Of a stretch of DNA of 64,000 nucleotides, positions 29,626 to 42,625 are shown piece by piece. Source of the DNA: Fistulifera solaris (lineage: Eukaryota). The stretch covers positions 186,001-250,000 of the forward strand of contig AP026151.1 in the NCBI GenBank assembly GCA_030295235.1. Direction: 5' to 3'. Below the pieces are notes generated by a model, which was not told where the DNA came from, did no database searches, and saw only the letters and a list, made by a program, of their open reading frames with translations. Each line of letters opens with the position of its first letter. Positions within the stretch are counted from its first letter, which is position 1. Both the position numbers and the translations under genes were made by a program.

Positions 29626-32600
29626 ATGGGAGGAAAAGACGAGAACGCAACGTCCCATGTCTTTGTAATTGACCCGCAATACGGTTGGAGACCGGCCATT
29701 CAGGAGGGAGCGTAAGTTATCTGCAGGCTTTTGTTGGCTGAAAAGCTCGGGTATTCCCCATGTGACCTCTGTTTTCACTGCAACACTCACAAAACGCTTG
29801 CTTGTCTTGCAGACCCAAAATGGCAAGGCACTCGTCTCCATTCCGGAATACAAGAGCGAAGACTCGATGGATTGCGACGGTGGCCGCGCGGCCAAGAAAG
29901 GAGAACAAATCTACATTAGCATGAAAGACTATCCCTTCGGAGTGCTTCCTTTGGCGAATGTTGATGTGAACGGAAATCTGGTGGAGTTTGCGGACATGGT
30001 CAAACTTCCTTATCTTCATGAGGTTCGTAGAAGTGTGCTTCGTCTGCCTTCGTCTGCCTTCGTTCCTTTTTCTTCTTTGTACTGACCGGCTTTATTGATC
30101 GACAGGCGGCTATTCTTTACAATCTCAAACGACGTCATCGTGAAGGCAAACCGTACACTCGTACCGGTGACATTATCATTGCGGTCAACCCCTTCCAGTG
30201 GCTCACCCATCTCTACACGGAAAAGAAACGTTCGTACTACTCGAACCGTCTTGTTTGGGAGCAAACGGACAAGGACCCTCGGGATGGCATGGAACCACAC
30301 GTCTACGAGGTATCGGCACTCGCCTACAAGGGATTGGCCTTCGGCAACGTCGATCAGTCCATCCTGGTTTCGGGTGAGTCCGGAGCTGGAAAGACCGAGA
30401 CGGTCAAGATTGCCATGAACCACATGGCCTCGGTACAACAAGGACCCAAATCGGAAGCCGATGCGGATGTCACCCAACTCGACCCGGTCGTCGATCGTGT
30501 CGTGCAGTCCAACCCTCTTTTGGAAGCATTCGGAAACGCCAAGACGCTTCGTAACGACAACTCCTCGCGTTTCGGTAAATACTTGCAGTTGCAGTTCGAC
30601 AACAGCTCGGCCGGAGCAGTCCCTTCCTACACCCGATCGACTTGCAAGTTGGTCGGCAGCAAATGCGAAGTCTACCTTTTGGAAAAGAATCGCGTGACAC
30701 AGCACACGGAGATGGAGCGTACCTACCACGTCTTTTACCAGTTGTTGGCGGCGCCCGACAAGCAAAAGTACTGGCCGAAACTCGCGGGCAAGCGAAATGA
30801 AGACTTCAAATATGTCGGCAAGTCGAGCACTACGAAGATTGAGGACATGACCGATGAAGAACACTATCATCACACGGTCAAGGTGCTCCGCATGGTGGGA
30901 GTGGACGACAACATGCTCAAGGAACTCTTTGTTGCCATTGCCATTGTCTTGCAGTGCGGTAACCTCGTGTTCGGTGCCAAGGGAGGCGATCGTGACAAGT
31001 CCGAAGTCACCACGCGTACGGAAATCAAGGATCTCGCTGAATTGCTTGGCGTGGATGATGCGGTTTGCGAATTGGCGTTCACGGAACGTACCATGAAGAC
31101 TCGCAGTGAAACGTACAAGGTGCCCTTGAAAACGGACGCTGCCAAAGAAGCTGCTGATTCCTTTGCCAAGGAAGTGTATGGCAAGATCTTCTTGTGGGTT
31201 GTGGACCAAGTCAACTCGGCCACCAATGCCGAAACAAACTATCAAGGTGGCGGACGTGACGATTTCGGAATTATTGGTCTTCTTGATATTTTCGGTTTCG
31301 AATCCTTCAAGGTGAACCGCTTCGAACAGCTTTGCATCAACTACGCGAACGAGAAGTTGCAGCAGAAGTTCACCGAAGATGTATTCCGCGCTGTTCAAGA
31401 AGAGTACGAATCTGAGGGTATTGAGCTAGCTGAAATCACTTACGATGACAACACCGATGTGCTTGATCTCATTGAAGGTCGCGGAGGTCTTCTGGCCATG
31501 CTTAACGAGGAATGCGTTCGTCCCGGTGGTAACGACCAGGACTTTGTTCAAAAGGCTTTGATGGCAAACAAGACTTCGCCCTGCCTAATCGTCAACAAAA
31601 CCGATCGCATGTCTTTCGGTGTTCACCACTACGCCGGAAAAGTCATGTACGACGCTGACAAGTTCGTTTCGAGCAACCAGGATACGCTTCCTACGGATTT
31701 GGAGGAGCTTGGCAAGGCCTCAACGAACAGCATTGTTTCTAAAACGGAGGCGGCCGACACATCGGGCAAACCGAAGCGCCAAAAGTCGAATATCGTTGGT
31801 CAAACTATTTGGGGCAAGTACAAGACTCAGTTGGCGTCCCTCATGACCAACTTGCGCACCACAAGCTCTCGCTACATTCGATGCATCAAACCCAACATGC
31901 GCAAGGTTCCCGTTGCGATGGAGCACGTCCCAACCATCGAGCAGTTACGATGTGCTGGTGTTGTCGCTGCCGTTACCCTGGCCCGTTCCGCGTTCCCCAA
32001 CCGTTTGGACAATCAAGCTGTGAAATTCCGTTACAACTCCATGTGGGACAAGAATGCCTACCCATCGAAACAAACCAACAGTATGACGAAGGAGCAGCAG
32101 GCGAAATGCATTGCTGAAGCTATCTTGACGTGCGCTTTGAAAGAAAAGGAAACAAAGAACAAAGAAGGAAAGATTGTTCGACAATTCGTCGTTGGTCACA
32201 CAAAGAGTTACTTCCGCGCCGGTGCCTTGGAGTATCTGGAATCCAATCGCTCGACGGGTCTGGATGCGCAAGCCACTACGATTCAAAAGTACATGCGTGG
32301 TGCCGTGACACGTATGAGACTCCGGGACATGGTGGAAGGCGCCGCCAAGCGAGAACGTGAAGCGCGCTTAGCCAAGGAAAAAGCCGAACGCGAGGCTCAC
32401 GAGAAAGCGGAACGCGAGGCGCGCGAGGCTCGGGAGAAGTTTGAACGAGAAAAAGCCGAACGCGAGAAGGCCCGTGCGGAAGCCAATCAGAAGTATCTAG
32501 ATCAAATTGCAAAACTTGAAAACGATCTGAAATTTGGAAGAAAGCGAGGGTAAACGACGACTGAAGAATGCGGCCGACAGAAAGGCGGAGATACAAGAAC

Positions 32601-33632: not shown

Positions 33633-36600
33633 ATGTCGTATTACGGAGGAAACGGAGGAGGAAATTCGGGCTATGGTCCGCCTCGTGGCGGTAAGTGGCG
33701 CATCGCGATGAGCGGCGGCTGTCAACAAAAATGTCTGTATTCACGCTTGTATATTTTCGAAAAGGCGGACACGCAGGATATTACGGAAATCATCAAGGGC
33801 GTCATGGTGGTTACGGCCCGGGTGGTAAGTCATTGCGCGCGAGATTCGAACTTCGAGCGTACAAGTGAAGAAAAGAATATCTCATTTTTACTTCCGAAGG
33901 AGGTGATCACTACGCCCCAGGCCGAGGAAGAGGTGGTGGAAGAGACGGAGGCAAGAGACCGGGTGGTAAGTTGAACGTCATACCTTTCTCATCGTTCGTA
34001 AGAGTCAATCGCTCAACAAATAATTTTTTGCAATCTAGGAGGAGACGATTGGGGCGGCCACGGCGGGAAGAAACACCAAGGTACGTCGTCGTCGCGTACA
34101 ATCATGACATTGTTAATGAACAAATCATCCTATTACTGCTTTCGGAAATCACATCTATTGCGCTATTACTATAAATTTGTCACTCAATTTCTTTTTTCAT
34201 TGTAACAACAGGAGACACGGCAGCGCGCAAACGATTGGAGGATGACGGCTTGCAGGTTTTCACGAATCTTTTTCCGTTGGTATTCAAAGGCCGCGTGGAA
34301 TTGACAATTCAACAGTTCACCATCACGATCGAGAATGCACGCAGAAAGAAGGCCGACACGAATCGTCCAGTGGATGCGGGCAAGGCAGTACCGGCTTTAG
34401 AGCCGGCCCCACCTCGCCCCGAAGAGTCGGACCGCGAGATCAATAAAGCATCGTCGCCGTTGAGTCGACGTATCTTGCTGAAGTGCCAAGCTATTCTTAG
34501 AGACGAGTGGTTCTTTTTACACCGACGGGGCAAAAACGGCGTATTCGGTGGATGCTATACCGGAAAAGTACGACGTGTCGAAGTTCAAAGACGAAGACAG
34601 AGATGCGGCTGGCGTCGTTGTCGAAGTCAGCGATGGCTGCAACGATGACGACGATGACGCTCCACATGTGATTTCAAAAAAGTATATTGTCTGGTTTGAG
34701 CCGGTAGGCGAGCCCTTCCGCATTGTCATTACGGACGGAAAATGCGACCCGTCCTGCGTGGAGAACATGCCTCGGCTCAATAACTTCCTGCATCAGGTGT
34801 TAAACAACGCTTGCATGATGTCAAAACTCATCTCAACGGAGAAAAATCCGGAGCGGTATTACTTTCCGGTGCCTGCAAGTCGAAATTTGTTGGGTAGGCA
34901 TTTTCAAGAAAAGAATAAAAGTCACCCCCTGCTTGGACTGTCCCAATCCGTCAGCGTAGCAGTTGACGGTTCCATGCAGATCCAATCCGACTTTTCTCTA
35001 GGTTGGTTTGAGTCAGCGTTGGTAAAGAAACGACTTCTTGATCCGCAGTCTCGAACGTTGGCCGGGGTATTCGTAGACCTGGAACGTCCGATTACGGATT
35101 TGAAAAAGCAAGAAGAAATAAAGGCAGCGCTCAATATGCTCTTGCTTCACTCTCGTTATGAGCGCGGGCCACAGTGGGAAGCAGACGAAGAAAACTTTTG
35201 CGGGAAAAGTATCAAGGTAAAGCTGACCTCGATAAGTTCATTCAAAACCGAATATCGAAGATGCGGGTTGCGGTCCAGCTAAATCGTAGAATCATCAAGC
35301 CCAAGACCGGAGAAATTGTCTTTTTGTTCCCAATGATTACACCTTTTCGTTTAAAGGAGAAGAGCTGACGGTTGAAAGATACTTTAAAGCGAGATATGAC
35401 GTTACCCTGAGATACCCGAACATGCCTTTGATTCGCATCCGTCGTCAGGACTATATGCCAGCGGAATTTCTTTTTTATGGTAAGTATAATTACCATCGTG
35501 CTCAGCCTTACAACTGAAATCTAACCATTGAACACAGCCTTCGATCAGCAAAAGAATGCCAATAGTGACGATCAGAAACAGACTGCGTTGCAGTTATGCG
35601 ACGACTACTGTGGGCCGAAACGGGTGTCTCAAATTGAACGTATGAACAGGGAGCCGTCTTTTGAACCAGTACTTAATGAACTATTGAGCAAGCTTCAAAT
35701 TGGAAAGGAGTCGAAGTGCCTTCAAGCGAAAGCACGTGGTACGTGAAGCATGAAACCTTAATTTTTTTCGCTGTTGCCATTGAATTCTCACGCCTCGTGT
35801 AGTCTTAGAAGAGCCGAAAGTTGCCGCGGGTGACGGCATGAAAACAATTTCAAAAGGATCGTGGGACTGCAAACAAGTCAATGCATCTGGTGTCCTTCAT
35901 ACTCTCGCTGTTATTGACCTAACCGGCAAGCACACGAATGAAAGGAACGGCCACGATATCGCGTCACTTATGCAGACATGCGAGCGCCAAGGCATTCTTT
36001 GTCATTTATTTCGTCGGGATGAAATAGAGCAGGTAACCGTGACTTTGCCTCGAGATTTCCCACAGGGCACCCGAGTCGACCTCGGACTTGCTCGTGCGAT
36101 GGCTGCGGAAGTTAGGCGAAAAGCCTACCAATTCTTTTTGAGTGCTAACTACACTCGTCCTTTTAAAACCACTGTGCGCTTCTTGGGGGAACTCAAAGAA
36201 TGTGTTGCGCTTCCCTTTGACGGAGAACTTGTGTTTTATTTTGCGGACAACAGCACACACGAAATCGGAAATCCATACGAGCCGCACCTCCGTTACAATG
36301 CAAGACTTTGCTTATCAACTTCACTCGAAGAAGAAGGTTTAGCAGAACATTTGCTAGACCCATGTCGGCAATTCGACGAAGTAGAAGGGCACTTGCTCAG
36401 GGAATTAGGCTTTATCGAGTCTATGTTCTTGAGAATAGGACCCTCATCCCAGAAAGTCTAGCTGCTACTCCGTTCTTGTTACCAATAGAAGGGCTTAGTC
36501 TTCACTCTGTTGATGGAATAATAGACTGCCCTAGCGTGGTGCTTGTGCGCTTGCGCGATAAAGACACAATGCAGTATAGCATACTAAAGTATGCCCTTTA

Positions 36601-38035
36601 CGAAGCTGGTCTCCAGGTAAGAGCCATCTGATGAGGCACAATGCGTTCCTGCTTATTCTAACACAAGTGGTTCAGTCGCAATGTTTTGTTGACGGGGACA
36701 AATTCAGGGTTCTGTAAGTAGCCACGCCTGACTTTGCAATCCTTGTTGCTAGTGCCTTAACTTTAGTTCTTACTCGTCTTTGAAAAGTACACGAAACCTT
36801 GCCATCAAGATTAATGCGAAGCTTGCCAACTCGATTTATCGATCAAGCTCGTGGAAAGTACATGGCAAGGCACGTAATTGGTTGGAAACTAATGAAAGCT
36901 TAGTGATCGGGTATGCTTTCGCGAGCAGTAAGTGACTTTTCGCCTTAACTATGAACACCTTTTCGAACCAAGAAACTAACATTATCCTGTCGTTTAGGTC
37001 AAGGCGAAGACGGAACAATGGTTGTCGCGGCATCAAGCTGTGTCGACGAGGAAGGCCTATGTATGCGCCATGCCAATATTGTACTCCGCAAAAATCCTTA
37101 CCTTACGCCAGTTGCCGCGGATAAGCTGATTACGGTGAGTGTGGAGTGTTTTGTTTTGCTGATGTTGTTCACAGAGACGCTGATGATATTCTTGCAAGAC
37201 CCTTTACGACTTGTACGTAAAGGACAGAAAGAAACGCCCCAAGCATTTGATTGTGTATCGCTGTAACGGACAGGATTCTCAGCTAAAAGGTATGTTTCAC
37301 TACTCATTTTGTTGTGGTTTTGGTATATTTTTAAAGATCTCAATTTGCCATTTTATCGCAGAAATTGTCGAGAGAGAGCTCACTCACATTGAGGACATCT
37401 TTCGCAAAAAGAGTTTGAGCAGTAAATCTGACATGCCGACACTGGATCCGGTGTCCAATCCAAAAGTCACGTTTTTAGTCGCACAGACGCTGACCAAAGT
37501 CAAACTTGTCCCCGCTCCAGACCACAGGATCCCAACAGTTGGAAACAACGTCCCGTCGGGGACTTGTGTCACCGATACTCGTGTGATCAGCCAAATCATT
37601 GACGGAAGCGGTATCCAACGCTTGGAAGGTGCGGGAAACTGTGACTTCATTTTGGTTCCACAGCACGGTTTGAAAGGGACCTCCAAGCCAGTGTATTATC
37701 GAGTGCTCAAGCTTGGAATCGATAAGAGTGAGGATAGTATTAGGGATGTGACGTATTCGTTGAGCTTCCGTTACGCAACCGCAACAAAGGTTCCTCGATT
37801 GCCGGCTGTTCTCTTGTACAGTCAGCGCATTGCCGGAGTGATCCTGGCGTGCCTACCAGCGTTGCGCGACTTGCCCGGGCCCGAAGCCATGTTTGTAGAA
37901 GAAAGTGATCAGGGGTATTTCCGACGCCATCGACATGTTCCGGATGACCAAGAAAATCCAGAAGAGGCCCCCGACCACATGGTGTTCACTCACATGGAGG
38001 GCCCGATGCCCTTTCACCCACACTTGTTGGCATGA
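33633..38035 (+). CDS. AGO: Divergent Argonaute/PIWI-family protein, multi-exon, predicted slicer-inactive
   Basis: Gly/Arg-rich N-terminus; VFTNLF; PAZ end LRYPNMPLI..YMPAEF; MID YSILK..SQCF..NLAIKINAKL; PIWI NVPSGTCV, DFILVPQHGLKGTSKPVYYRVL, TYSLSFRY, LPAVLLY. Confidence 0.9.
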
Positions 38036-39226
38036 ACAATATATAGAACATTACATATCGCATTTCATTTGGTTTTCCTCTAGAATTCGTAGTACTGTGT
38101 ACGCATGGTATCTTTTGTTCGATGTTCTTTTCAACGCAGAAGCTTCGCCCACTGGTCGCGTCTACACAATTGAACCAGTAGTTTGCGTAGACGCTCGTAT
38201 CTGCCCAAAGAGTGTGCCGCGACATGAAAGGCGAGATGCGTGCGAGTTCGATGGGCATGGCTGGAAGGGCGTCGCAGCATGCGGAAGTCTTCTCACTTTG
38301 TCACGAAGCAACATGGTCCCCCCAAAACGGAAGACAGATGCCCCGAAAATCCGATCCACCAAAACCATTTTTTTAGCATTCACACGGAACACTTCAATTT
38401 CCTTTTTCGACGCGATAGTAATTTCCCATGAAGGTGCAACAATCTCTCTCCGATCAAGTCATTCCGTCCATTCTTGACACGAAGTCAATGAGAGCAATAA
38501 TCGCTCCTCTTGGTGTCAGGACTGCTTGTCGAAAAAGCTTCAACTTAGCCTCTACAAAGTAGGTAGCAGCGTGTATCGCTTGAATAGCACTTCAATCAGC
38601 TTCATTCGAAATCGAAGCATGGATGACGCGCACGTGAAGACGAAGGTCGATCATCGAGATCATCGAGATGTATTGACAGCGGCGGTAGGTGAACCGAATA
38701 ACCGCACCTTTTATCGTAGTCCGCTGGAACTAACTTTGATCCGCGCAACATTGAAGAATGCCGTGAGTAAGAAAGGAAGGAAATGTGGAGCCTGGTGGAC
38801 ACGACGATGCGCAGTCGTCCGAGTGACGACCAAAGGCGAACGACGAAAAGGTGCCGGAAAACCTGAAATATTTTGAAATCGTGTTGGTTCTGTGTCCACA
38901 ACAGCTGTGTCCCTCCAAATGACCCATGACCCGCGACTACAGATTATCGTACAGTACTATCCTGACACCGACAACGAGTGCGTAAACGCGCATCTTGCTG
39001 GGACTCCTTTCTTGTTTTCTGTTTAGGATAAATAGCAATCGAGCTTATATGCCAGCAATTATGCCCCATGACCAGTGAATGAAAGTGCCAATAAGAAATC
39101 CAAGACGTGCGTTTTTCGCCGCCAAGACTGTTTTCCTCGCAAGACGAAAAAGACAAGAGGAAAACACACAAAAGATTTCTCACTTTCATTCTTCTTTCTT
39201 CTCCTGTCGACTTTACTTTCACAACC

Positions 39227-42200
39227 ATGACAGACTCGATCGATACCGAGACACCGGTCTACTTGAAATCCGCCGCACATGGCTGGATTCCGGCAGTGCA
39301 ATTGAAACAAGTCGCCGGTGGGAAAATGGCCCGGGTCGCCGTCCCGAAATTCAAACACGAAAACGATGTGTTGACGTGCGGCAAGATGACCAAAGCCCAA
39401 TTGATGGATACGATCGATATTCCATTTGCCGACTACGACAACAACGTCTTGCCGGTGCAGAATGTGGACGCGAATGGCAACTTGGAAGATTATAAAGATA
39501 TGGTCGAATTGCCCTTTATGCATGAGGTACGACGCAAGAGAAAGAGAATTCAGTTGACTGATTTGCTTGCTGATGCTGATTCTTCTCACACACTCATCTC
39601 TTCTTTACAGGCCGCCATTCTGTACAATCTCAAATTGCGACACAAACTGCAAAAACCGTACACACGCACGGCCGATATTGTCATTGCGATCAATCCGTAT
39701 CACTGGTTGCATCATTTGTACACGAAGGAAAAACAAACCTACTATTCGAATCGCTTGGTGTGGGACCACAACGAAGAAGATCCCCGCACCACCCTCGAAC
39801 CGCACGTGTACGAAATCTCCGCCTTGGCTTATAAAGGACTCATTCGCGGCGAAGATCAATCCATTTTGGTGTCGGGAGAATCCGGAGCCGGAAAGACCGA
39901 AACCGTCAAAATTTGTTTGAATCACATTGCCAGTACCCAAGCCCAAGACGATTATTACGAAGACAAAATCGTCCAACGCATCGTCGAATCGAATCCTTTG
40001 CTGGAAGCCTTTGGGAATGCCCAAACGCGTCGCAATGACAATTCGTCGCGATTCGGCAAATACTTGCAATTGCAGTTTGACAAGTCCCACCATCGCATCG
40101 AAGCGTACGGCACACGACGCGGTCAAGTGCCCTTGGTGGGCAGTCAATGCGATGTCTATTTGTTGGAAAAGAATCGGGTCGTCCAACACGATGATCAAGA
40201 ACGCAGTTTTCATATCTTTTATCAATTGCTGGCCTCGCCCGACAAGACGCAGTACTGGTCGGAACTCCACAACAAAACACCGGAATCCTACTCGTACTTG
40301 GGTCGCTGTGCTACCACCCACATTGAAGGCGTGAGTGATGCCGATCACTTTCGTCACACGGTCGAAGCGCTCCAACTCGTCGGTGTGCAAGGACGGGAAT
40401 TGCACATGTTGATGCAAGCCATTTGTGCCGTTTTGCAATTGGGCAATCTGCGCTTCGGGGCGTTGCACGGAGATTCCGACAAGTCGACCGTCATTTCGGT
40501 CGAGGAGTTGCGCGTCTTGGGAGATTTGATTGGCATTGCGCCCCACGATCTGGCGACCTGCATGACGGAACGTACCTTCACCACCAGTGGTGAAACACAC
40601 AAGGTTCCGCTCAATCCCATCATGGCCAAGGATGGTTGTGATGCCTTGGCGAAAGAGATTTACCAAAAAGTCTTTTTGTGGGTCACGAAAAAGATCAACG
40701 ATGCCACCAGCGTCGATGGGACCGCCATGAAGCTCGGTACCATTGGATTGCTCGATATTTTTGGTTTCGAAACGTTCGAGATCAACCGCTTCGAACAACT
40801 CTGCATCAACTATGCTAACGAGAAATTGCAGCAAAAGTTCACGCAAGATGTCTTCACCAACGTTGAGAAAGAGTACATTGCGGAAGGAATCGATCTTGCC
40901 GAAATCAAGTACGAAGACAATGGAGACGTTCTCGAATTGATTGAACACCGCTCCGGTTTGATTGCTCTTTTGAACGAAGAATGCGTCCGTCCCAAGGGCA
41001 ATGACTTCGAATACGTCCAGAAAGCGCTCGCGATTAACAAGGATGCCAGCAAGCTCATGATCCATCGCACGGACCGCTTGTCGTTCGGTATCAAGCACTA
41101 CGCCGGAGACGTGATGTACAGCGCCGAATTCTTCGTGACTCGCAACTTGGATACTCTCCCCACGGACTTGCAAGAATGCATGGAAAAGTCGTCCAACGAG
41201 ATCCTTAGCATCTTCCAAGCCGACGAAGTCCAGAAGCCTCATCCTCACAATGCTCCCCGCCAGAAGAGTAACATTGTCGCGGCCACCGTGTGGACGAAAT
41301 ACCGCGGCCAGTTGGAAAACTTGATGAAGAACTTGCGCCAGACGGAATCGCGCTACATTCGATGCATCAAGCCCAATACCGAAAAGAAAGAACTGTTGAT
41401 GGAACACAATCTCGTGGTGGATCAACTTCGCTGCGCTGGTGTCGTGGCGGGTATCACCATCGCTCGCAGTGTTTTCCCCAACCGCTTGCCCAACAGTTTG
41501 GTGTTGACGCGCTACTCCAACATGTGCGACGCACGATCTTCCACTACCGGTCAAAAGAGTGCCGAGAAGTGCAAGCTCCTCTTGAACTGGCTTCTCAAGG
41601 ACATGGATGCCGTGAACGAGAACGGTGACAAGGTCAAGGCCTTTGTGGTGGGGAAAACCAAGACGTTCTTCCGTGCCGGTGCCCTCGAGTGGTTGGAGTC
41701 GCACCGCATCCGCAGTGTGGACTTGCAGGCCATCATCATTCAAAAGGTCGCCCGCAGTTGGCTCGTTCGCAACAAAGGCAAACGCTTGAATCACCGACGC
41801 CGCATGGAAGAAGAGGCCCGGCGACGCGAAGAGCAGGCCCGATTGGCCCACGAAGCGCGCTTGAGAGAAGAAGAACAGCAACGCAAGGCAGAGCACCAGA
41901 AGAAGATCCGAGAAATGGAAGCCACAATCCAGCGTTTGGAATCTCAAGCCGAAGCAGAAAGCCGCATGCAGCAAGAAAAGCTTAAGGCCGCTCGAGAACG
42001 CGCCGAGTTGTTGCGAGAGGAGAAGGAGATGCTGGCGGAACGCATCGAGGAAAGGAAGGCCAAGGATGTTCGTCAGCGAATCGCCACAAAAGAGTTGCAG
42101 AAGAAGCAGTTGGATGAGATCAAACGAGCCATCATGTTCTTGCAGCAACAGAATAAGCTATTGCAGAAGGAGCACATGAAACTCGAGTTGAAACTCGAGC

Positions 42201-42625
42201 AAGAGATGCTCCGCTTGAACAATGCGAGCAGCAACTGCAACATGCTCGAGGACAGTCTAAGTAACATGTATGCTTCTGCGGACAAGGTCAGTCGCAATCA
42301 TGACAGCTTATCCAGTGGCATCGATTTGGCCAAACAGGAGAACGAAAAGATGTCGGCTCGGGTGGATGATGCACAGAGTCGGTACATGGCCCAAGCCGAA
42401 ACGCGATTGCATTTGCAGAGAAACATGGCACGCATTCTCAATCTCGCTCAAGACAAATGCCGTGACCATTCATTGTTGGATTTCATTCAATCGACTGCCT
42501 ATGAGTGCGAGAACGATTCCAAGGTGATCATGGCCGGATTGGAAGCTGAATTGGATGATAGTGGTCGGCCCAGTTTGACGCCTCTCTCGGATCATTCGTC
42601 CTCGGGCACGGACCGTAGCCAATAA
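39227..42625 (+). CDS. Myosin heavy chain C (in-frame intron 39527-39610)
   Basis: Motor motifs intact; IQKVARSW; tail YMAQAETRLHLQRNMARILNLAQD, homologous to myosin B. Confidence 0.95.
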   Translation: MTDSIDTETPVYLKSAAHGWIPAVQLKQVAGGKMARVAVPKFKHENDVLTCGKMTKAQLMDTIDIPFADYDNNVLPVQNVDANGNLEDYKDMVELPFMHEVRRKRKRIQLTDLLADADSSHTLISSLQAAILYNLKLRHKLQKPYTRTADIVIAINPYHWLHHLYTKEKQTYYSNRLVWDHNEEDPRTTLEPHVYEISALAYKGLIRGEDQSILVSGESGAGKTETVKICLNHIASTQAQDDYYEDKIVQRIVESNPLLEAFGNAQTRRNDNSSRFGKYLQLQFDKSHHRIEAYGTRRGQVPLVGSQCDVYLLEKNRVVQHDDQERSFHIFYQLLASPDKTQYWSELHNKTPESYSYLGRCATTHIEGVSDADHFRHTVEALQLVGVQGRELHMLMQAICAVLQLGNLRFGALHGDSDKSTVISVEELRVLGDLIGIAPHDLATCMTERTFTTSGETHKVPLNPIMAKDGCDALAKEIYQKVFLWVTKKINDATSVDGTAMKLGTIGLLDIFGFETFEINRFEQLCINYANEKLQQKFTQDVFTNVEKEYIAEGIDLAEIKYEDNGDVLELIEHRSGLIALLNEECVRPKGNDFEYVQKALAINKDASKLMIHRTDRLSFGIKHYAGDVMYSAEFFVTRNLDTLPTDLQECMEKSSNEILSIFQADEVQKPHPHNAPRQKSNIVAATVWTKYRGQLENLMKNLRQTESRYIRCIKPNTEKKELLMEHNLVVDQLRCAGVVAGITIARSVFPNRLPNSLVLTRYSNMCDARSSTTGQKSAEKCKLLLNWLLKDMDAVNENGDKVKAFVVGKTKTFFRAGALEWLESHRIRSVDLQAIIIQKVARSWLVRNKGKRLNHRRRMEEEARRREEQARLAHEARLREEEQQRKAEHQKKIREMEATIQRLESQAEAESRMQQEKLKAARERAELLREEKEMLAERIEERKAKDVRQRIATKELQKKQLDEIKRAIMFLQQQNKLLQKEHMKLELKLEQEMLRLNNASSNCNMLEDSLSNMYASADKVSRNHDSLSSGIDLAKQENEKMSARVDDAQSRYMAQAETRLHLQRNMARILNLAQDKCRDHSLLDFIQSTAYECENDSKVIMAGLEAELDDSGRPSLTPLSDHSSSGTDRSQ

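Follow-up and report, generated by a model that had tools for sequence, protein, structure and literature searches.

Diatom Argonaute (AGO) proteins have been described as unusual for some time, with De Riso et al. (2009, NAR, PMC2724275) assigning one AGO each to Phaeodactylum and Thalassiosira and reporting that the diatom AGOs group apart, in a clade of their own, and that their catalytic site is poorly conserved. Rogato et al. (2014, PMC4247016) and Lopez-Gomollon et al. (2014, PMC4156623) repeat these findings and connect the small RNAs of diatoms with repeats and with DNA methylation, and a 2018 Phytophthora AGO paper (PMC6284064) sets the diatom homologues outside both the AGO-like and the PIWI-like groups. 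Here, we describe an Argonaute gene of the diatom Fistulifera solaris, which lies at 33633-38035 on the forward strand of a 64,000-nucleotide stretch of contig AP026151.1 (positions 186,001 to 250,000; assembly GCA_030295235.1), hereafter the window, and all features below are on that same strand. Our literature search found no paper on the F. solaris Argonaute gene or on an insertion in the MID domain of diatom AGOs, while published accounts of the oddity of diatom AGOs date back to 2009 and the gene itself is already annotated; what is added here is a clade-wide lack of a full catalytic tetrad with the guide-binding pocket kept, and a conserved inserted domain. Taken as a whole, the locus is best explained, with a probability of about 0.8, as an intact, spliced AGO gene of a diatom clade, whose product would bind guides, would not slice, and would silence through partners.

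The gene does not occupy one long frame, but forms a chain of open stretches across all three frames, which resolve into 12 exons and 11 introns with a product of 1196 amino acids. All introns (11/11) are GT-AG introns of 58-131 nucleotides, mostly with GTAAGT donors, and the coding sequence runs from an ATG at 33633 to a TGA at 38033-38035. The model was read with one base skipped and an N placed at each of three missing bases, leaving three X residues among the 1196 amino acids, and the sole stop of this corrected, spliced model is the terminal one. It is identical to the F. solaris protein GAX24071.1 (also 1196 amino acids) at 1193/1193 readable residues, with the three X corresponding to F, F, and G, and the ATG and TGA are therefore the true coding ends. 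The gene model, which an earlier note on this DNA had flagged as needing repair, is thus mended by splicing and four corrections. Since GAX24071.1 is labelled ‘eukaryotic translation initiation factor 2C [Fistulifera solaris]’, as Argonaute was formerly called, the gene had previously been annotated under that name. A word-based search with the exon-12 piece led to a second F. solaris protein, FisN_9Lh322 (1199 amino acids, with PAZ and Piwi, 59% identity), which is annotated as ‘hypothetical protein’ and gives nine collinear tblastn matches (residues 74-1199) in the window. It is 57% identical to GAX24071.1 over the full length and, coming from the same species, is a paralogue rather than an orthologue, so that F. 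solaris has at least two paralogues of this divergent AGO.

Profile searches identify the product as an Argonaute, with Pfam returning Piwi (PF02171) at 109 bits (cut-off 28.9) and PAZ (PF02170) at 35 bits (cut-off 28.8) on GAX24071.1. The PAZ match covers residues 412-514, and the PAZ core (TVERYF...YMPAEF) was placed at 35368-35469 from this match and from an alignment to the PAZ domain of human AGO2 (hAGO2). When seven pieces of the gene were scanned separately, the last open stretch (exon 12) was the sole match (Pfam Piwi, 66 bits, E 4.2e-18). Against PDB sequences, phmmer with GAX24071.1 reached hAGO2 at E 3.8e-14, aligning its PAZ domain, and a profile built from 33 sequences of the family described below reached hAGO2 at E 1.4e-65, and every one of the 58 distinct PDB sequences that it matched at E <= 0.001 is an Argonaute/PIWI protein or a domain thereof. 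Profile-profile comparison of the family with canonical AGOs by hhalign gave a probability of 100 and an E of 1.1e-90 over 775 columns. Two exons of 46 and 30 amino acids proved too short for a phmmer search of PDB, with the one returning triosephosphate isomerase (E 0.074), a match that we rejected as chance, and the other nothing.

Structurally, an AlphaFold model of the paralogue FisN_9Lh322, built from 148 aligned sequences, has a mean predicted local distance difference test score (pLDDT) of 77.3 and a predicted template modelling score (pTM) of 0.80, and takes the N-L1-PAZ-L2-MID-PIWI fold. Foldseek matched this model to human AGO1 and AGO2 at E ~2e-38, with template modelling (TM) scores of 0.71-0.77 over the target and 14-16% identity (for AGO1, E 2.4e-38 and TM 0.74 over the target). 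By profile and by predicted fold, then, the window protein is an Argonaute with the full N-PAZ-MID-PIWI build. The earlier note had called it a highly divergent Argonaute, and both halves of that description hold, the Argonaute by the Pfam domains and the AGO2 profile match (E 1.4e-65), the divergence by a tree stem of 1.77 changes per column.

Evolutionarily, the window protein belongs to a family that a phmmer search with FisN_9Lh322 against 1.84 billion representative sequences recovered with 433 matches at E <= 0.001, 71 at E <= 1e-10, and 19 at E <= 1e-30. Of 30 clusters looked up, seven gave an organism name, in each case that of a diatom: Fistulifera solaris, Thalassionema nitzschioides, Thalassiothrix antarctica, Nitzschia sp. 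Nitz4, Entomoneis paludosa, Ditylum brightwellii, and Odontella aurita. Many of the family records are MMETSP transcripts, which shows that relatives are expressed. A second homologue search returned only FisN_9Lh322 itself when queried with its residues 570-1199 and four proteins when queried with the family alignment, and none of 12 pattern matches for GAX24071.1 in metagenome contigs was confirmed as a related locus. In a quick IQ-TREE analysis of 358 MID-PIWI columns (42 rows, with the short rows P0009, P0019, and P0022 left out), 27 family rows split from 15 canonical rows with a Shimodaira-Hasegawa-like approximate likelihood ratio test (SH-aLRT) support of 100. The window protein pairs with FisN_9Lh322 (SH-aLRT 100) on the long stem given above, and this pair falls inside a set with P0002, P0030, P0010, and P0037 (SH-aLRT 98). 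The tree thus places the window protein in a clade in which every named member is a diatom, as would be expected of the specialised diatom silencing branch that had been suggested as its origin. Of the comparisons that the earlier note had asked for, the alignment to AGO2 gives a kept pocket and a lost tetrad, the fold (of the paralogue) an AGO build, and the tree a separate clade.

In a MAFFT alignment of 30 family rows (the window model included) and 15 canonical AGOs drawn from the phmmer matches of FisN_9Lh322, the positions of hAGO2 Y529, K533, Q545, C546, K566, and K570 are filled in the window protein by Y, K, Q, C, K, and K, as had been claimed for the phosphate-binding residues of its MID domain. 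These residues map to YSILK at 36575-36589 (Y529 and K533), to SQC at 36676-36684 in the 38-nucleotide exon 8 (36676-36713; Q545 and C546), and to KINAKL at 36807-36824 in exon 9 (36788-36927; K566 and K570). Among family rows with a residue at the position in question, Y529 is kept in 25/25, K533 in 25/25, Q545 in 24/26, K566 in 27/28, and K570 in 28/28. Nearly all members of the family also end, after a low-confidence tail, in PF(H/R)PHxxA, which in the window protein is the PFHPHLLA at 38009-38032 directly before the stop codon. Canonical AGOs place their C-terminal carboxylate at the 5′-phosphate pocket, and the conserved end may have the same role here. As judged from the aligned residues, the guide 5′-phosphate pocket is retained in the window protein.

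This conservation bears on the possibility that the protein has given up small-RNA guides and serves instead as a scaffold that binds RNA or proteins, acting, for example, through its RGG tail and inserted domain. Such a change of role would sit well with the extreme divergence of the F. solaris pair (1.77 changes per column on the stem) and with the many insertions of the window protein (1196 amino acids versus ~860 in hAGO2). However, the Y-K-Q-K-K pocket, the PAZ core, and the family-wide C-terminal PFxPHxxA are all conserved, which is hard to explain without guide binding, and we consider the loss of guides unlikely.

In the PIWI domain, the catalytic tetrad of hAGO2 (D597, E637, D669, and H807) is replaced in the window protein by A, P, C, and Q, a placement on which MAFFT, a HMMER profile against hAGO2, phmmer of GAX24071.1 against hAGO2, and hhalign are concordant. 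The Ala at the D597 position (36915-36917) belongs to the IGYA at 36906-36917 in exon 9, a position also supported by hhalign, and the Pro at the aligned glutamate-finger (E637) position is at 37096-37098 in exon 10 (36998-37134), within a loop that makes this placement less certain. The Cys at the D669 position (37262-37264) falls in the YRCNG at 37256-37270 of exon 11 (37199-37289), and the Gln at the H807 position (37823-37825) in the LLYSQRIA at 37811-37834 of exon 12 (37362-38035), which carries the remainder of PIWI. All six motifs named in the earlier note (YSILK, SQC, KINAKL, IGYA, YRCNG, and LLYSQRIA) are present, at or near the places that it gave. Its three tetrad substitutions stand as A, C, and Q at D597, D669, and H807, but its count does not, since the change of E637 to Pro makes four. 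The window protein lacks a complete DEDH or DEDD tetrad and, on these alignments, would not be classed as slicer-competent.

Loss of the tetrad extends across the family. Ten of the 15 canonical rows (10/15) have DEDH or DEDD, whereas a complete tetrad is found in 0/27 of the family rows that are filled at all four positions of the MAFFT alignment. Individually, the first Asp is present in 1/29 family rows, the Glu in 8/29, the second Asp in 14/29, and the His in 0/28, with one Asp and one Glu in its place. The paralogue FisN_9Lh322 has A, S, C, and Q, and environmental fragments that are 41-63% identical to it carry the motifs of the window protein, namely IGYA in P0025, YRCNG in P0032, and LLYSQRIA in P0009.

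This same recurrence is what could speak for a protein that has kept the ability to cut RNA, whether by a non-canonical active site (e.g., one formed by the conserved Cys and Gln together with a nearby Asp) or by a separate nuclease that it carries: A, C, and Q are identical in both F. solaris paralogues, and the presence of IGYA (P0025), YRCNG (P0032), and LLYSQRIA (P0009) in environmental relatives shows constraint on the site. The two-metal RNase H mechanism needs carboxylates, though, and at three of the four metal-ligand positions the protein has residues that in the PIWI fold do not coordinate Mg2+, while no fully filled family row (0/27) has a complete tetrad, so that residual cutting seems quite improbable. 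With the pocket kept and all four tetrad positions non-acidic or non-His, the protein is most likely, as the alignments stand, a non-slicing small-RNA effector, in agreement with the non-cutting small-RNA effector proposed before.

The integrity of the gene rests on four one-base frame changes that the earlier note overlooked. They occur in exons 5 and 7 without room for an intron, at 34514, after 35195, after 35320, and after 36386, and all four fall in homopolymer runs of T or G. We compared the window with contigs from 4 of 6 listed sequencing runs, none of the six being recorded as RNA; among the four were run X1, with the same organism label and 97% of words, and run X2, a wetland metagenome from a different study. 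The surplus T in the T run at 34514 is absent from the X1 and X2 contigs, and the bases missing from the window at 35195-35196 (T), 35320-35321 (T), and 36386-36387 (G) are present in both. The X1 contig spans all 4801 bases with 0 substitutions and with gaps only at the four breaks, and two X2 contigs carry the identical four corrections with 94-95 substitutions relative to the window. Because the contigs of both runs carry the same corrections, the four breaks are homopolymer errors of the window's assembly.

The X2 contigs are also informative about selection. Of their eight further insertions or deletions, seven are intronic (33740, 33877, 33895, 34024, 34109, 34117, and 35759) and the eighth is a 3-base in-frame deletion at 37639; the 40 listed of 95 substitutions comprise 29 intronic, 8 synonymous, and 3 non-synonymous changes. 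From this pattern, it follows that in a natural relative selection acts on both the reading frame and the exon boundaries.

We also weighed programmed frameshifting as a source of the four breaks, and rejected it because they are absent from the DNA of two other runs. Real frameshifts in a pseudogene, which had been named in advance as grounds for abandoning the reading, were apparent at first and are excluded by the X1 and X2 contigs together with GAX24071.1. Thus, although four one-base breaks in ~1.9 kb of coding sequence of the window, with no such break in the long frames of both flanking myosins, could be taken for a gene that is dead in the sequenced genome, that conclusion deserves almost no credence given that every break is in a homopolymer run, that the corrected run lengths are found in X1 (0 substitutions versus the window) and in X2, that GAX24071.1 equals the corrected reading, that the JGI gene call P0177 passes exon 5 unbroken, and that the splice sites of all 11 introns are intact. 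For genome annotation, this means that homopolymer insertion and deletion errors in this assembly make intact genes resemble pseudogenes. At four such errors per 4.4 kb here, other genes may look frameshifted likewise.

Beyond the missing tetrad, the second feature that sets this family apart is an insertion in the MID domain. Exon 7 (35803-36616), with one of the assembly errors, encodes MID and its insertion up to YSILK...GLQ, and the insertion itself is at 36138-36526 (residues 678-807). An insertion of roughly 100 amino acids had been noticed earlier; it is real and family-wide, but larger than estimated, at ~130 amino acids. It follows helix 2 of the MID fold and precedes strand 3, at a site where ~180 profile positions face ~40 hAGO2 residues (471-511) in the alignment of the family profile to hAGO2, and hhalign finds no counterpart of the stretch in canonical AGOs. 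Pennate and centric members alike have it, Ditylum and Odontella included, and two of its residues are nearly invariant, the His of ‘TH’ and the Pro of ‘DPF’.

Folded alone (FisN_9Lh322 residues 685-809, with 29 family rows), the insertion is predicted with confidence to be beta-rich, with a pLDDT of 83.6 and a pTM of 0.77. Foldseek of this model against PDB gave 0 matches at E <= 0.001 (best E 0.23), and VIA-align against 48,161 chains gave 0 at Z >= 5 (best Z 3.3). The best VIA-align match was a Tudor domain, with 49 residues aligned at a root-mean-square deviation of 3.1, and the top rows were SH3-, Tudor-, and PWWP-like small barrels, a similarity of a common level from which we take no fold assignment. 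A search of the ESM Atlas with the insertion returned scores of <=0.90, for AGO MID/L2 fragments and an archaeal hypothetical protein. We tentatively raise the idea, which we regard as possible and yet doubtful, that the predicted fold is an undescribed module supplying the output of catalytically dead diatom AGOs by serving chromatin or RNA-decay partners as a docking or reader surface. If this were true, the diatom clade would be a mechanistically distinct branch of RNA silencing. The conserved insertion, which has no clear structural match, in any case offers a concrete handle on the silencing mechanism in a major group of primary producers.

The Gly/Arg-rich N-terminus of the protein (33633-34080) is spread over four mini-exons, each of which ends in phase 1. 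Exon 1 (33633-33690) holds its start, and is followed by the Gly-rich exon 2 (33765-33824, 60 nucleotides, phase 1-1), exon 3 with RGRGGGR (33900-33965, 66 nucleotides, phase 1-1), and exon 4 (34039-34080, 42 nucleotides, phase 1-1), with exons 2-4 each being skippable in frame. Between this N-terminus and the MID domain, exon 5 (34212-35479), identified by tblastn and by reading the DNA, encodes the N domain, L1, and PAZ and contains three of the one-base assembly errors, and exon 6 (35538-35738) encodes L2.

Mechanistically, diatoms show RNA silencing, but its effector has barely been studied; published work on their small RNAs connects these with transposons and DNA methylation. We posit that the window protein would bind a 5′-phosphorylated small RNA through MID and PAZ and pair this guide with a target. 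Without cutting, it would then silence by holding the target and recruiting other factors, for which the Gly/Arg-rich N-terminus and the ~130-amino-acid MID insertion would be the likely docking surfaces. A transcriptional or chromatin-directed output would be the most likely one, although this is the least supported step and a guess from the diatom small-RNA literature.

Several points weigh against this account of a guide-binding, non-slicing AGO and should be set beside it. The fold model is that of the 57%-identical paralogue and not of the window's own protein, and the tetrad assignment comes from sequence and profile alignments and not from a residue-level superposition. The E637 position is the least certain of the four, as the loop there exceeds that of canonical AGOs by two residues, and an Asp lies nine residues downstream of it, within a helix. 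At the position of hAGO2 R812, another phosphate contact, the MAFFT alignment has Val in the window protein, and the position is not conserved. The X1 contig retains the introns and hence represents DNA, so that it is not evidence of expression, and the chromatin-directed output would draw on literature about other diatoms only.

The gene lies between two myosins, as had been noted and as Pfam now supports on both flanks. Upstream, an open frame at 30031-32553 (+) encodes a myosin motor (Myosin_head, E 2.9e-178), and downstream, one at 39095-42625 (+) encodes a myosin motor with a coiled-coil tail (Myosin_head, E 2.2e-180), with both spans giving the open frame only. As paralogues on the same strand, the two myosins share 53% identity across 826 aligned positions (BLASTP). 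The upstream frame has a single stop at 32551-32556, after which the same frame continues, coiled-coil-like, to 33144; either an intron or a further assembly error may account for this break.

Among known systems, the slicer-inactive AGOs of eukaryotes include the nematode WAGOs, human AGO1 and AGO4, and the nuclear Drosophila Piwi. By analogy, the window protein would follow the same principle, with guide binding kept, catalysis lost, and partners needed. It would not be a member of those clades, as it falls in a diatom clade that the tree of family and canonical rows splits from the 15 canonical ones with SH-aLRT 100, and its resemblance to WAGOs is functional only, in the loss of slicer residues. 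Closer are the diatom AGOs of De Riso et al. (2009), which share with the family described here a diatom grouping and a degenerate catalytic site, and the named members of our family are both centric and pennate. For the two proteins concerned, Pt2_47611 of Phaeodactylum tricornutum (FJ750269) and Tp3_1029 of Thalassiosira pseudonana (FJ750270), we infer kinship with this family. Within the diatom clade, the F. solaris pair stands out by its very long branch and by the loss of the second Asp, which is kept in 14/29 family rows. With human AGO2 (PDB 4OLA, 4W5N), the window protein shares the four-domain fold and the pocket formed by Y529, K533, Q545, C546, K566, and K570, while at ~15% identity it differs in the replacement of DEDH by A/P/C/Q, the ~130-amino-acid MID insertion and further insertions, the Gly/Arg-rich N-terminus, and a longer C-terminal tail that ends in PFHPHLLA.

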